Positions 29,067 through 59,136 of a DNA stretch of 64,000 nt are shown here, in pieces (within the stretch, counting starts at the first letter, position 1; each line of letters opens with the position of its first letter). The notes beneath the pieces are model-generated. The model searched no databases. It was not told the origin of the DNA and saw nothing but the letters and a program-made list of their open reading frames with translations. The translations under genes and the position numbers were made by a program. This DNA comes from Eledone cirrhosa (lineage: Eukaryota), in the NCBI GenBank assembly GCA_964016885.1, contig OZ024743.1, positions 54,498,001 to 54,562,000 of the forward strand, written 5' to 3'.

Positions 29067-29248
29067 TCATTATATATATATATATATATATTGGAATAAA
29101 TGCTCTGAAATAGCGATATATATGTGAATATAGACATAGAATATTCGAAAATATTCTGTATGTTCATAATAAACATTTTGAAGACCTAATCGCTATAGAA
29201 TAGAATACGTCACGTATTACAATTAGATTCTCGATAAAAGCAAGGGAA

Positions 29249-30847
29249 GTAAGTCTACGCGTTTCATTCTTGTTAGAATTCATCAGGACTACATATCCAG
29301 TGCTTTCATCGAGAATGGCACAGCTAGAGACTTATAGAATACTTAGCTGTGTACAGGAACTGGTTTGAAAGAGCGGTTGCCGGTCCGGCAGAAATTAGAA
29401 ATTGGAATAAATGCTCTGAAATAGCGATATATATGTGAATATAGACATAGAATATTCGAAAATATTCTGTATGTTCATAATAAACATTTTGAAGACCTAA
29501 TCGCTATAGAATAGAATACGTCACGTATTACAATTAGATTCTCGATAAAAGCAAGGGAAGTAAGTCTACGCGTTTCATTCTTGTTAGAATTCATCAGGAC
29601 TACATATCCAGTGCTTTCATCGAGAATGGCACAGCTAGAGACTTATAGAATACTTAGCTGTGTACAGGAACTGGTTTGAAAGAGCGGTTGCCGGTCCGGC
29701 AGAAATTAGAAATTGGAATAAATGCTCTGAAATAGCGATATATATGTGAATATAGACATAGAATATTCGAAAATATTCTGTATGTTCATAATAAACATTT
29801 TGAAGACCTAATCGCTATAGAATAGAATACGTCACGTATTACAATTAGATTCTCGATAAAAGCAAGGGAAGTAAGTCTACGCGTTTCATTCTTGTTAGAA
29901 TTCATCAGGACTACATATCCAGTGCTTTCATCGAGAATGGCACAGCTAGAGACTTATAGAATACTTAGCTGTGTACAGGAACTGGTTTGAAAGAGCGGTT
30001 GCCGGTCCGGCAGAAATTAGAAATTGGAATAAATGCTCTGAAATAGCGATATATATGTGAATATAGACATAGAATATTCGAAAATATTCTGTATGTTCAT
30101 AATAAACATTTTGAAGACCTAATCGCTATAGAATAGAATACGTCACGTATTACAATTAGATTCTCGATAAAAGCAAGGGAAGTAAGTCTACGCGTTTCAT
30201 TCTTGTTAGAATTCATCAGGACTACATATCCAGTGCTTTCATCGAGAATGGCACAGCTAGAGACTTATAGAATACTTAGCTGTGTACAGGAACTGGTTTG
30301 AAAGAGCGGTTGCCGGTCCGGCAGAAATTAGAAATTGGAATAAATGCTCTGAAATAGCGATATATATGTGAATATAGACATAGAATATTCGAAAATATTC
30401 TGTATGTTCATAATAAACATTTTGAAGACCTAATCGCTATAGAATAGAATACGTCACGTATTACAATTAGATTCTCGATAAAAGCAAGGGAAGTAAGTCT
30501 ACGCGTTTCATTCTTGTTAGAATTCATCAGGACTACATATCCAGTGCTTTCATCGAGAATGGCACAGCTAGAGACTTATAGAATACTTAGCTGTGTACAG
30601 GAACTGGTTTGAAAGAGCGGTTGCCGGTCCGGCAGAAATTAGAAATTGGAATAAATGCTCTGAAATAGCGATATATATGTGAATATAGACATAGAATATT
30701 CGAAAATATTCTGTATGTTCATAATAAACATTTTGAAGACCTAATCGCTATAGAATAGAATACGTCACGTATTACAATTAGATTCTCGATAAAAGCAAGG
30801 GAAGTAAGTCTACGCGTTTCATTCTTGTTAGAATTCATCAGGACTAC
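29249..30847 (-). ncRNA. Six type I hammerheads (44 nt; start 29249, 29560, 29871, 30182, 30493, 30804)
   Basis: Reverse complement of the motif at 31294. Confidence 0.9.
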
Positions 30848-31293
30848 ATATCCAGTGCTTTCATCGAGAATGGCACAGCTAGAGACTTATAGAATACTTA
30901 GCTGTGTACAGGAACTGGTTTGAAAGAGCGGTTGCCGGTCCGGCAGAAATTAGAAATTGGAATAAATGCTCTGAAATAGCGATATATATGTGAATATAGA
31001 CATAGAATATTCGAAAATATTCTGTATGTTCATAATAAACATTTTGAAGACCTAATCGCTATAGAATAGAACTATTCTATAGCGATTAGGTCTTCAAAAT
31101 GTTTATTATGAACATACAGAATATTTTCGAATATTCTATGTCTATATTCACATATATATCGCTATTTCAGAGCATTTATTCCAATTTCTAATTTCTGCCG
31201 GACCGGCAACCGCTCTTTCAAACCAGTTCCTGTACACAGCTAAGTATTCTATAAGTCTCTAGCTGTGCCATTCTCGATGAAAGCACTGGATAT

Positions 31294-32270
31294 GTAGTCC
31301 TGATGAATTCTAACAAGAATGAAACGCGTAGACTTACTTCCCTTGCTTTTATCGAGAATCTAATTGTAATACGTGACGTATTCTATTCTATAGCGATTAG
31401 GTCTTCAAAATGTTTATTATGAACATACAGAATATTTTCGAATATTCTATGTCTATATTCACATATATATCGCTATTTCAGAGCATTTATTCCAATTTCT
31501 AATTTCTGCCGGACCGGCAACCGCTCTTTCAAACCAGTTCCTGTACACAGCTAAGTATTCTATAAGTCTCTAGCTGTGCCATTCTCGATGAAAGCACTGG
31601 ATATGTAGTCCTGATGAATTCTAACAAGAATGAAACGCGTAGACTTACTTCCCTTGCTTTTATCGAGAATCTAATTGTAATACGTGACGTATTCTATTCT
31701 ATAGCGATTAGGTCTTCAAAATGTTTATTATGAACATACAGAATATTTTCGAATATTCTATGTCTATATTCACATATATATCGCTATTTCAGAGCATTTA
31801 TTCCAATTTCTAATTTCTGCCGGACCGGCAACCGCTCTTTCAAACCAGTTCCTGTACACAGCTAAGTATTCTATAAGTCTCTAGCTGTGCCATTCTCGAT
31901 GAAAGCACTGGATATGTAGTCCTGATGAATTCTAACAAGAATGAAACGCGTAGACTTACTTCCCTTGCTTTTATCGAGAATCTAATTGTAATACGTGACG
32001 TATTCTATTCTATAGCGATTAGGTCTTCAAAATGTTTATTATGAACATACAGAATATTTTCGAATATTCTATGTCTATATTCACATATATATCGCTATTT
32101 CAGAGCATTTATTCCAATTTCTAATTTCTGCCGGACCGGCAACCGCTCTTTCAAACCAGTTCCTGTACACAGCTAAGTATTCTATAAGTCTCTAGCTGTG
32201 CCATTCTCGATGAAAGCACTGGATATGTAGTCCTGATGAATTCTAACAAGAATGAAACGCGTAGACTTAC
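31294..32270 (+). ncRNA. Four type I hammerheads (44 nt; start 31294, 31605, 31916, 32227)
   Basis: gtagtc CTGATGA attc-taacaa-gaat GAAA cgcg TA gacttac; predicted cleavage after 31330 (GUA). Confidence 0.9.
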
Positions 32271-32390
32271 TTCCCTTGCTTTTATCGAGAATCTAATTGT
32301 AATACGTGACGTATTCTATTCTATAGCGATTAGGTCTTCAAAATGTTTATTATGAACATACAGAATATTTTCGAATATTCTATGTCTATA

Positions 32391-32436
<46 letters not shown>

Positions 32437-44492: not shown

Positions 44493-44576
<84 letters not shown>

Positions 44577-44921
44577 AATATATATATATATATATATAAT
44601 ATATATACATATATGTATGTATATATAAAAACAAATAACGAAACGAAATTAAATTTCGTTTCGTTTGTAACTCACTTTTGTATGACTGACGCTTAAACAA
44701 TTAAGTTAAAAATGTACATCTATATATGCATACTGAAATACTAGTGTGTATATGAATACACACACGTATACATATGTAGGTGTACCAAGTCTTTCACTGA
44801 TCGCTTTACAGTGAGCGGCCCAGCTATTCTGTATGTAAACACACAGACAAACCGGTTTTTAGAGTCATACTGGTTTTTCGGGGGAACACCTTCCCCCTAT
44901 TCTCCAGAAAGCCAGACAAGG

Positions 44922-44966
44922 AATATTGAACTAGTTTCGTTGTTGTTACAACTCATCAGCAATATT
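44922..44966 (-). ncRNA. Type I hammerhead ribozyme
   Basis: aatattg CTGATGA gttg-taacaa-caac GAAA ctag TT caatatt. Confidence 0.85.
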
Positions 44967-45373
44967 TACCTATCTACCGGCCTTTCTGGAGAATTGTAAA
45001 AGCACATATCGTTATATGCTTTTTCTATGAAAATTAGTAGTGGGCAGACTAATTTGCATAGAGTGTGAGTACGCACCGGTTCAGCGGAGACGATAAAAAC
45101 AAATAACGAAACGAAATTAAATTTCGTTTCGTTTGTAACTCACTTTTGTATGACTGACGCTTAAACAATTAAGTTAAAAATGTACATCTATATATGCATA
45201 CTGAAATACTAGTGTGTATATGAATACACACACGTATACATATGTAGGTGTACCGCTGAACCGGTGCGTACTCACACTCTATGCAAATTAGTCTGCCCAC
45301 TACTAATTTTCATAGAAAAAGCATATAACGATATGTGCTTTTACAATTCTCCAGAAAGGCCGGTAGATAGGTA

Positions 45374-45418
45374 AATATTGCTGATGAGTTATAACAACAA
45401 CGAAACTAGTTCAATATT
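45374..45418 (+). ncRNA. Type I hammerhead ribozyme (mirror copy)
   Basis: Same motif with one stem II substitution. Confidence 0.85.
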
Positions 45419-47929
45419 CCTTGTCTGGCTTTCTGGAGAATAGGGGGAAGGTGTTCCCCCGAAAAACCAGTATGACTCTAAAAACCGGTTTGTCTGTGTG
45501 TTTACATACAGAATAGCTGGGCCGCTCACTGTAAAGCGACCAGTGAAAGACTTGGTACACCTACATATGTATACGTGTGTGTATTCATATACACACAGCA
45601 GATAGGCAAATCAGAGAGGCCAGTGAAATAGAAATTAGAAGACCAAAGCTAAACAGAAAGAATGAATGGAATAACAACAACACCCAAACAAACAACACTG
45701 ACCTAAGAGAAGTATAAATAAGTAAATAAAATAAGATAAATAAATACATACACAAGCACAATAACAACAAGCACATAAACACACACTAGTCACCCATCAC
45801 ACAGCAAACATAACACTATACACACACGCAAACGCATGCGCAAAGAAGACAAAATAAAATAAACAAACAAGCAAATAAATAAATAAATATATAGACAGAC
45901 TGAATAAAAAATGGCGTAGACATACAACACAACAGGAGGAAAATATAACACCACTGACGATGTTGCAGATGTGCAACGAAAGATTTATGATAAACTATAT
46001 ATATGTGTTTGTGTCTATATTGTATCTGTATCACTTTTGACCGTCGGTCAGTCAATGGCAACATTGAGGGCCGAGTAAGTTAGATTACCGATATAAAAGA
46101 CAGCGAGAAGCGAAAACCAACCAAACAGTGAGTGTGTTCTGTTATTAATTCTGGCAATATTACACAAATATGACCCTCCCCAAGTATAAATATATATATA
46201 TATATATATATACATAAATTCATGTTGCATAATATTAATGATAATTTTGTATCTGTTCATTCGTATATATGTGTAAAAGGTAAACAGAAATAACAACAAT
46301 CGGTACAGTATATGGAAGGTATATATTAGGTTAATGCTTGATATAGCAGGAAGAAGGTCTTAACGTTTTGGACGCTAGTCATTCATTAGAAGAAAGAATG
46401 AGAAATAAGATAGATTGAGGGGACGGGCGCGTTGGAATTGGAAAAAATGTCTTTAGATAAAAATAACAGTTACCCATGTATATCGGTGTTCTATCTTCAG
46501 ATTATCGATATTGTCCAAAGTATAGGCAACAGCCGGTACAATTTAGTACCTGGGTCTTAGTACATTAACTTAACAGTTAAGTGGACAGGAGCAAATTAAT
46601 ATATAATGCCTTGCTCTAGGACACAATACATTGCCTGATCCAAAAATCGAATGATACCAGTGGGAGTCTAACACTAAAACTCTAGCCACTAAGCCATAAA
46701 CATAATATATGTACAGACAATATGATTTCATATAACAATGTAATAATGTTTGGTCAACCTCAGTGGATAAAGAAACACAAGTATAACTAGAGTGGGATAG
46801 AATTAAGTGCCATTGTATATGTGTGTACAAACGGGTAAAGACACCCTTCGGTCACGGATGACGATGACCTTTGCACCTAGATAGTTCCTCCGCGAGGTAC
46901 AAGCCCGGGGAAGTTTTGAGGAAGACCAACAGTCACCTATGCATACTAGTCTCCCCTCTCCACGTCACTGATGTCGTCCAAGGGAAAATCAAAGTTTGAT
47001 CCAACTTGGCGTGTGTGACGTCGCAACACATTCCTACAACTGAGTAAACTGGAGCAACGTGAAATAAAGTGTCTTGCTTGAGGACACAACGCATCGCCCG
47101 GTCGGGAATTCAATTCACAACTTCACGATTGGGAATCCAACTTTCTAACCACTAAGCCACGCGTCATTACACCTGTGTACAGTGTGTAATAAGTGTGTGT
47201 GAAATTGTTTTGTGTGTGAGCGCGTGCGTACATGGTGGGTGCATGCGTGTGTGTGTGAGAGAGAGATGGAGAGAGTAAGAAGAGTGGATGCAGCATGATC
47301 GAATATATATCCCTTCATAAATATTTGGCCCTGAGATTGATCCCAGTGTTATATAGTCAGCAAGTATCAATCATCATAGTTTTGAGTCGTCCCAAGCGTT
47401 GTAAGTGAAATTGCGTTGATAGAAATAGTGTAGAAGCCTTTCGAATGGACTGTACCTGTAATTCAAAACGTCTCACTTGTTAAACATTTAATCCTGCCTC
47501 GGCCACTAAGCCCGGTAGCACGGCTCGCACTGCAGAAGACAAGCAAATGCGTCCTCGGCCCCCGGCGAGCTGACCACGTCCGTAAAATGAGATTGATAAC
47601 ACCCCATCTGAGGAATAAGCTACGCGAGATAGGGGGACTGTTGCAGCGTGTGTCGAGAGCCATTGTCCATGGAAACACCACTCTGACCTAGTTGTAAAGT
47701 CTGTCACTCTCTGTCCTTCCCCATATCTGTCTTTCTTTGTCTTGTCATCTTTGCTCTTGCTCTTATTTTCCTCTCATTTATGGCATTTATTGTCCTTTCC
47801 AATGCTGCCTTCTTTTCCTGTATGTTTAACCAAATAGCAATTTCAATTTACCTCTTTTAAAAAATCATGTAGCATCTGGAAAATTAATTTAAGGGTAAAA
47901 CAGTCTATGGAATCATCTTTTAGTGCTGT

Positions 47930-57246: not shown

Positions 57247-57885
57247 AAAAAGTTTTCTCACCCCCGGCCGCTTATTAATTTTGCTAATCTATCTCAGGCA
57301 AAATTCTATTTTAAGTGGTAGCATTCCTGCGACAATTAATTTTCTTTGGTACATTAAAAAGCATTATACATGACAAAAAATAAAAAAGAACATGGCAAGA
57401 AAACTCATATGTTATGAAATAAATAGGATGGGTTGGGGTCTCAATATGTAAACTCAGTGACTAATTCTGCTATTTAAAAAAATCAACGGTGACAACCTAA
57501 AAAAATTACATATTTTCACACATCGCTCCGCTTATTCCTCCTCCTATTATTCGGGACCCTGCAGTATGTATACACGTAAAGTAAGAGTGTATGTACGTGA
57601 ATATTTAAATATACAATATGTGCGTATGTATGTGCACATATGGACGGCGGCTGCATACGCAAACGGATGTATATACATGCAAGTATAGCATGTATTTGTA
57701 AAGGTATCATAGTACATATTTTACATAAGTATTGTTAGAAACTGAATCACTGGGAATTTCCACGTCAGATTCGAAACAGCAACCTGCTGTTTAAACAGCT
57801 GTTGATATGATGCTGCGTTAAACATCTTTTCAACAACACACTGTGAGACAATAAGTACAAAGTTACTCAGTCCCTCATTCTCAGA

Positions 57886-59136
57886 GGGGGTGCGGTGCGT
57901 TGATCAAATCTTCATTCTCCGGCGTGTCCTGGAACAACGGTGGGCACATCAACAGCCTACCGTCCTCTGCTTCATCGACTTTGCAGCTGCCTTCGACTCG
58001 GTAGATCAGGAAGCCCTATGGCGTATAATGCAGGTGGACGGCATCCCAGTGAAGCTGCTTCGTCTCGTACAAGGCTACTACCGGTCGACTCGGGTCCATG
58101 GTAGGGAGACGGAGACGTTCGATGTTGGGACTGGTATTCGGCAGGGGTGTGCGCTATCGCCAACTCTCTTCAACTACGCGATTGACTACACTCTCAACAC
58201 AGCGCTCGTGATTACCCGGGCGTAGAGGTCGGGAGAGGGGTCGTGGTGACGGACCTGGCGTACGCGGATGACATCGTCCTGATGGGCGCTAACGGGACAG
58301 ATGTACAAGGTGCTCTCGACAGGGTGCACACTGCAGCCGCTGCTGTTGGTCTACGAATCAATGCCGCCAAGTCGAAAGTCATGACGTCACTGGTCTCGCC
58401 TGATGCCTGCCAGCCAATATCTCTCGAGGGCGTGAACCTGGAGAATGTGGAGTCCTTCGTTTACCTGGGCTCAGCAGTGGTTCCAACGAGACAGGGCGCA
58501 GCCGAGGTCAAGCGTCGCATAGGTGCTGCCAGATCCGCTTTTGGGCGCCTCCAGCGGTGTCTGTGGGACAGAAGAGAGATCACCTCGGCGACCAAAGGGC
58601 GAATCGACCAGGCCGTCGTTCACACTATCCTCCTCTATGGCTGTGAAACCAGGTCTATGAGGGTAGTCGATCAACGAGGGCTGGAGGTCTTCGACAATGA
58701 CTGTCTCCGCCGCATTCTTCGCTGCAGACGCGTTGATTGGGTGCCTACTACCTTCGTCTTCGCCTGAATCTTCGACCCCTTCCTTCAGTGCTTCTGCAAC
58801 GGTGCTTGAGATGGTTTGGTCACGCAGCCCGGCGCCCTGAGAGTGAGATGATCCGCAATGTTCTCCTCCCACCTCCACTCCCTAACTGGCGCAAGGGCGT
58901 TGGCGGGCAGCTGAAGACCTGGGCAACGACGATCAAGGAGGACCTCTCCGAACTCTCAGGTCCGCAGGTGGTCGGCCTGCGCCGATGGAACCGTGACTGG
59001 CTCGCTATCTCCAGTGACCTAGCTCGGGACCGTCGTGTGTGGGCTGCCATGGTTCGGGATGCCGTCAAGACAAGGGAAGAAGCCGGCTCAACCCGTTCAG
59101 GGTGAATGTCGACACAAGTACAAGTACAAGTAAGTA
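57886..59136 (+). mobile_element. 5'-truncated RTE-clade LINE (RT domain + C-terminus, disrupted)
   Basis: DQIFILR, FIDFAAAFDSV, GIRQGCALSP, LAYADD, FVYLGS, LRWFGH; (CAAGTA)n tail. Confidence 0.92.

Follow-up and report, generated by a model that had tools for sequence, protein, structure and literature searches.

The insertion analysed here occupies positions 44625–45596 of a 64,000-nt stretch of Eledone cirrhosa DNA (contig OZ024743.1; hereafter, the window) and consists of two head-to-head arms built from a 468-bp unit. An earlier note on this DNA had described one unit plus 162 bp, followed by an inverted arm that meets it through a 2-nt CC microhomology, and this description is exact. 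Positions 44625–44786 and 45093–45254 are 100% identical over 162 nt with a period of 468, and 45253–45596 is the reverse complement of 44744–45087 over 344 nt with two mismatches (44800/45540 and 44949/45391, given as arm 1/arm 2), one change being private to each arm relative to the other. The arms overlap by 2 nt at 45253–45254. The features of the locus are as follows.

44495–44624, no strand: (TA)n microsatellite in the left flank, likely the insertion target, judging from the sequence and from the ends of the family in (TA)n
44625–45092, minus: arm 1, one full 468-bp unit whose outer end lies at unit position 1, the fixed A site
44625–44698, minus: tail, unit positions 1–69/74, which separate the A and B end sites; it includes a 13-bp hairpin at 44637–44665
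44692–44705, minus: small predicted hairpin containing the B end sites (unit positions 70 and 75; 44694 and 44699)
44900–44993, minus: type I hammerhead domain, intact copy, with extension stem, stem I, CUGAUGA at 44959, stem II and GAAAC-UA-GUU
45093–45254, minus: continuation of arm 1 into a second unit, which is truncated after its first 162 bp
45253–45254, no strand: head-to-head joint, 2-nt overlap (CC)
45253–45596, plus: arm 2, inverted, unit positions 463 to 120, with a non-canonical outer end
45347–45440, plus: hammerhead domain of arm 2, with U17 at 45411 and a G-to-A change at 45391 that breaks one stem II pair

The ribozyme-sense strand is the minus strand in 44625–45254 and the plus strand only in the inverted arm. 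Arm 1 is 630 nt long, and each arm is shorter than two units. The insert has a canonical, tailed A end but no canonical B end, and no target duplication is visible; arm 2 stops 45–50 nt short of the B site, at a flank that is not TA.

Rfam returned no match within the window at the gathering score. Below its cut-off of 52, the Hammerhead_HH9 model matched both arms, at 44906–44977 on the minus strand (38.6 bits, E 4.9e-08) and at 45363–45434 on the plus strand (34.6 bits, E 9.6e-07). miRNA-family matches that appeared at a relaxed Rfam threshold scored far below their own cut-offs and were discarded as hairpin noise. The 7-nt stem I (AATATTG/CAATATT) and its TTCTCCAGAAAG/CTTTCTGGAGAA extension, both reported in the earlier note, are present in the sequence and paired in the predicted folds, and U17 of the GUU triplet lies at 45411, as noted there. 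The mismatch at 45391 disrupts a stem II pair in this same hammerhead, the one that had been put forward for a cleavage assay; in the intact hammerhead, the predicted cut falls after 44929 on the minus strand, at the 305/304 junction of the unit. The topology is type I with one motif per unit, and stem III is minimal and palindromic.

The minus-strand unit has a predicted folding energy of −163.7 kcal/mol, compared with −101.6 ± 5.7 for shuffled sequences (z −10.8). CUGAUGA is kept in 88 of 88 full units sampled, and the cleavage triplet is GUU in 63, GUC in 23 and unmatched in 2, counts that come from a sample partly selected with the GUU pattern. Young units carry GUU (33 of 34) and old units carry GUC (16 of 17). 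Across 20 divergent units, 99.1% of the cells of the predicted structure are paired and 6 of 146 pairs have changed on both sides, one of them in stem II. With the structure taken from the same alignment and the sequences related, we regard this as supportive rather than strong evidence that the RNA structure is conserved across divergent units.

In the 3.0-Gb genome, the 39-nt ribozyme core has 5,021 exact occurrences (control, 0). The best copies are 98–100% identical, and older subfamilies range down to about 85%. The unit is 37% GC, arrays reach about 30 units per arm, and no long open reading frame (ORF) was found in the unit on either strand. These data support a young, high-copy, non-coding family, distinct from a 311-bp family that also lies in the window. 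By its sequence features it is an animal non-LTR retrozyme, with predicted self-cleavage. Distant relatives of the unit occur at L179 (5252–6264), L183 (4671–6085) and L206 (1–146), with a period of about 480–490, 78% over 59 nt, the same ACUAGU stem III and a GUA triplet. On contig C1, near 55.97 and 55.99 Mb, an identical insert with its flanks occurs twice, 17.7 kb apart (L151 and L152), as either a segmental duplication or an assembly duplicate.

The earlier note had proposed a search for circularly permuted copies. The ends proved not to be permuted but fixed, at unit position 1 (A) or at unit positions 70–76 (B). In a positional sample formed by the first 100 cores on C1, which make up 28 inserts, 20 inserts carry two canonical ends, in every case one A and one B (AA 0, BB 0), and 8 carry one. 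Inward-facing end pairs over the first 97.8 Mb of C1, few of which were inspected individually, were mixed in 37 of 39 cases (p 1.4e-9). The AA pair among them belongs to two separate inserts (L131), as does one mixed pair (L188/L189); the BB pair (L132) looks real, with two B ends on one insert. Genome-wide, we counted 2,316 TA-to-position-1 junctions (A ends) and 884 B-end junctions, the latter on the reverse strand only, the forward count being inflated by overlapping matches and so not usable. In a regular-expression census of the positional inserts, false matches outside inserts were ignored, and one A end seen otherwise (L067) was missed. Nearly all family ends lie in (TA)n, and direct duplications flank the inserts at L214, L022, L062 and L074, which sit in non-repetitive targets. 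At L061 (7211–7773), the left flank is (GAT)n and the right flank (CAT)n, an inverted rather than a direct arrangement.

As evidence against a retrozyme, the earlier note had named copies that all share fixed ends, or that adjoin an ORF of a Penelope-like element (PLE) as its pLTR. The first is largely what we observe, with at least one end at position 1 or 70–76 in 28 of 28 positional inserts; the second is not, the 468-bp unit being found in 0 of 42 GIY-YIG loci examined from among 10,595 candidates. Fixed ends are compatible with the retrozyme label and point to priming of the Penelope type at defined internal sites of the RNA. In vitro, AT-rich DNA is nicked on both strands by a purified PLE enzyme, which starts at two internal RNA sites that define the tail (PMC11167929), and an inverted truncated copy and a one-sided tail are recognized marks of PLEs (PMC8557442; PMC3846280).

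PLEs that combine a reverse transcriptase (RT) with a C-terminal GIY-YIG nuclease are abundant in this genome, and carry before the nuclease a CX4CXXC motif that has been assigned to Neptune and Nematis (PMC8557442). The one-tailed rule holds in all four autonomous PLE inserts seen at both ends. The enzyme for insertion is likely to be a PLE RT/GIY-YIG protein. The family to which these four inserts belong has many intact 784-codon frames and is, from its end rule and two direct junctions, a candidate autonomous partner; its unit yielded no canonical hammerhead motif. Nine of 118 family loci contain DNA of this candidate lineage, and in two of them an arm is joined directly to a PLE 3′ piece, with no TA spacer. 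At one (L145), the retrozyme end has a tail and the PLE end paired with it has none, with an apparent 4-nt overlap between them, an arrangement that suggests that the arms came from different RNAs. At the other (L160), a young retrozyme is joined to a PLE 3′ piece 99.6% identical to the intact family, and both ends are tailed. Both chimeras could be later PLE insertions accompanied by deletion.

Several further observations concern PLEs. In two separate copies of the young, intact candidate family, the coding region is split into overlapping 455- and 784-codon frames (L203, 7299–8663 and 8597 onward; L205, 6840–5476 and 5542–3191), an arrangement that suggests a programmed frameshift or a retained small intron. 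Within the window no PLE protein match was found. A minimal hammerhead-like motif (CTGACGA...GAAA) at window position 45954, plus strand, 360 bp to the right of the insert, is nearly identical to motifs beside two GIY-YIG loci (L053 and L057) and is likely what remains of a PLE pLTR. At 57806–58767, plus strand, a GC-rich stretch contains broken reverse transcriptase frames (Pfam RVT_1); these matched none of the PLE proteins tested and are probably a LINE remnant.

Unlike the outer ends, the inner ends at 71 head-to-head joints are evenly spread, with no peak at the ribozyme cut (4 compared with 3.3 expected), and run-off at that cut was rejected for this lack of enrichment. The 162 bp and the CC of the present locus are unremarkable draws from the family's range of joints. 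The terminal redundancy that the earlier note saw in the 162 bp is accordingly not borne out, the value being one of many evenly spread truncation points. At least 2 nt of overlap was seen in 21 of 46 well-aligned joints, whose positions are approximate, having been taken from BLAST ends. A first test of arm-to-arm distances gave 12 of 32 and was uninformative, since consensus-like copies are near everything, and a shared-variant test was used instead. Rare variants were common to both arms in 5 of 31 two-armed inserts, compared with 3 of 989 cross-insert pairs, a variant being counted as private when absent from the other sampled inserts (the one in L073 was later found at 7 loci).

Taken together, we hold it probable that the 468-bp insertion is a high-copy hammerhead retrozyme with fixed paired ends, copied into TA-rich DNA, likely by PLE RT/GIY-YIG, from circular or long multimeric RNA. 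In brief, the PLE enzyme would nick both target strands. Synthesis from one nick would begin at RNA site A and from the other at site B, which lies about 70 nt upstream. Each cDNA would end at an arbitrary point, after which the two would be joined, often through a few shared bases. As in known retrozymes, transcripts of multi-unit loci would cut themselves and be ligated into circles, the proposed template. In the present copy, arm 1 would have run for 630 nt, and arm 2 would either have been primed off-site at position 120, on a ATACACAC-like match, or have been trimmed later. In a read-through transcript of this copy, pairing with the other arm is predicted for 30–31 of the 31 core bases, and with one hammerhead per strand a unit-length RNA cannot be cut out. 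The copy is atypical and probably an inert dead end.

That the template continues past one unit, as the earlier note had proposed in invoking a circular or multimeric template, is supported: arm 1 and arm 2 both run through the ribozyme cut site, which implies a template that was either left uncut or ligated again after cutting, and long arms elsewhere in the family pass this site many times. By analogy with known retrozymes, we lean slightly towards a circle over a linear multimer. The youngest lineage is marked by one haplotype found at only 7 loci, and its units are identical on five contigs apart from a few edge and homopolymer differences. Its arm lengths are 6.9 + 12.9 and 17.6 + 8.0 units, with 19.8 units at L073 and 25.6 in an insert on C18, figures to be read with the caveat that long identical arrays may be wrongly sized in the assembly. 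Long, uniform young arrays on five contigs indicate that arrays are likely born long, for which a circle is the simple explanation, and birth of arrays from a circular template has been proposed before (PMC7229834). Arms of up to 17.6 identical units favour a circle without proving it.

The strongest alternative keeps the same enzyme and family but takes as template a linear, uncut multimeric transcript of a tandem locus, with arrays growing by re-insertion at their own end and by local duplication, and with no need of the ribozyme for insertion. We consider this a serious possibility that falls short of an even chance. Higher-order patterns at L083, L087, L185 and L177 reveal local array growth, so that length alone is no proof of rolling-circle copying. 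Clean subfamily switches, of which there are two in 349 adjacent unit pairs, both occur in mid-arm and are consistent with homology-mediated joining of a new array to an older copy; the one at L212 falls in a 69-nt interval that brackets the cut site (about 15% by chance), and the one at L023 does not bracket it. A linear template would also agree with the flat distribution of inner ends around the cut site and with the report that uncleaved RNA is the main PLE substrate in vitro (PMC11167929). It is harder to reconcile with youngest loci that are long and uniform on several contigs, two of which (L073 and the C18 insert) exceed the longest single arm in the lineage and would need two RNAs, and with the conserved core and fold of the ribozyme in subfamilies that have diverged to about 87% identity.

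The earlier note had read the inverted arm as a fold-back. In such a self-priming model (PMC3846280), the first cDNA would prime on itself and be copied back, and the endonuclease would then cut at fixed sites. Variants common to both arms would be accounted for in this way, and 3 of the 71 joints are symmetric, with 15 within 26 nt of symmetry compared with about 8 expected. The remaining 56, however, are far from symmetric, and a second priming event is the likelier origin of the inverted arm. Fold-back at the present locus would require a loop of 165 nt held by 2 nt. Moreover, the longer arm can be either of the two, and so can the arm with the tail, and at L214 the insert is flanked by a direct duplication of about 16 bp, within which each outer end has a few bases in common with the target. 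We therefore regard fold-back as unlikely.

Less likely still, the 468-bp unit could be the solo pLTR of an autonomous PLE yet to be found, its copies being 5′-truncated insertions of that element. The end anatomy is that of PLEs, retrozymes are held to derive from pLTRs (bioRxiv 10.64898/2026.07.22.740005), and the loci that we examined are a small part of the GIY-YIG candidates. We found no sequence homology between the unit and the pLTRs of the PLEs examined, and what makes this reading improbable is that the arms run, for up to 30 turns, into further ORF-less 468-bp units and not into an ORF. Spread as a satellite through recombination at the DNA level, or an artefact of assembly at the TA tract, might be suspected from the microsatellite-rich context and from arrays prone to mis-sizing, but merits hardly any credence given thousands of dispersed copies, base-precise paired ends, target duplications, arms that differ at two sites in the present insert and a structure that covaries as RNA.

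Within the preferred reading of PLE-driven copying from circular or long multimeric RNA, a more specific scheme is possible, which we put forward tentatively. A dimeric Neptune-type enzyme, without a hammerhead of its own, would carry out obligate asymmetric twin priming on a ribozyme-made 468-nt circle, starting one cDNA at A and the other at B and running for up to 17 turns. If true, a single mechanism would account for the inverted arm of PLEs, their tail at one end and the circle proposed for retrozymes, and a test in vitro would have both its RNA and its enzyme family named. The retrozyme class and its proposed dependence on PLEs are already published, and the locus itself is ordinary. 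In the literature searched, we found no report of cephalopod retrozymes or of strict end pairing; subscription papers and preprint supplements may contain such reports. The near-strict pairing of two end types and the long uniform arrays of the youngest lineage, neither of which we found in print, refine the known picture. The family offers a test system: it provides counts for the rule of one tailed and one tailless end, long arrays of very recent origin and a candidate partner whose frames are intact. Two points could be tested on it: the origin of PLE inverted ends and the use of retrozyme circles as template.

Closest at hand for comparison is the 311-bp family at window 29090–32403, where 6.4 plus 4.3 near-identical units stand head to head and the A/B end rule is kept. 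The two families share their insertion anatomy (4 of 4 inserts of the 311-bp family are one-tailed) and a related ribozyme domain. The 311-bp family differs in its GUA triplet, a tail of about 30 nt and 1,144 exact cores, and outside the ribozyme domain no similarity to the 468-bp unit is detectable. Outside the catalytic core, the ribozyme domains align with a score of 43, compared with 2.9 ± 8.4 in shuffles (0 of 2000), a test in which the two strands of a stem are not independent evidence. The earlier note had called the 468-bp elements an independent retrozyme family; they are distinct, but with ribozyme domains this similar, "independent" is too strong.

In LINE-1 twin priming, two target nicks prime two cDNAs that are joined head to head through microhomology, one starting at the poly(A) end and the other at a random internal site, on non-overlapping parts of one RNA. 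In the 468-bp family, each of the two sites is fixed and the arms have sequence in common. Plant LTR retrozymes, with a type III hammerhead in their LTRs and 4-bp duplications, were rejected as a class for this family, which has type I topology, tandem units and longer duplications. Non-autonomous Chlamys elements such as MRC1 (PMC8557442) are likewise ORF-less PLE dependants with multicopy head-to-tail insertions; as described there, they are without canonical hammerheads and have a 3′ end like that of their autonomous partners, whereas the 468-bp family has a hammerhead and no detected homology to a partner.

Animal non-LTR retrozymes (PMC7229834; bioRxiv 10.64898/2026.07.22.740005) share with the 468-bp family strongly folded, non-coding tandem units of a few hundred bp and low GC, a single type I hammerhead in each unit, its stem III short and palindromic, and thousands of copies in a genome that also holds PLEs. 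They have been argued to be non-autonomous PLE derivatives that arose from pLTRs (bioRxiv 10.64898/2026.07.22.740005). The Xenopus families in that study have 21 PLE matches, whereas no parent pLTR was found for the 468-bp family, and 8 of 9 Xenopus retrozyme elements showed no cleavage in vitro. Circles of published animal retrozymes were detected by northern blot, whereas for the 468-bp family a circle is a proposal. Fixed paired ends, head-to-head arms and (TA)n targeting are features of the 468-bp family that the accessible text of these sources does not describe.

Endonuclease-bearing PLEs and the 468-bp family have in common tandem and inverted 5′-truncated copies with the tail at a single end, insertion into AT-rich or (TA)n DNA, duplications of about 9–16 bp at the target and two internal start sites. 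The family differs from these PLEs in having no ORF and in its tail of 69–74 nt, compared with 30–40 nt in PLEs. Finally, the one-sided tail of PLEs is said to occur "often" or "optionally" (PMC8557442, PMC3846280, PMC11167929), whereas in the 468-bp family the pairing of one tailed with one tailless end is near strict.
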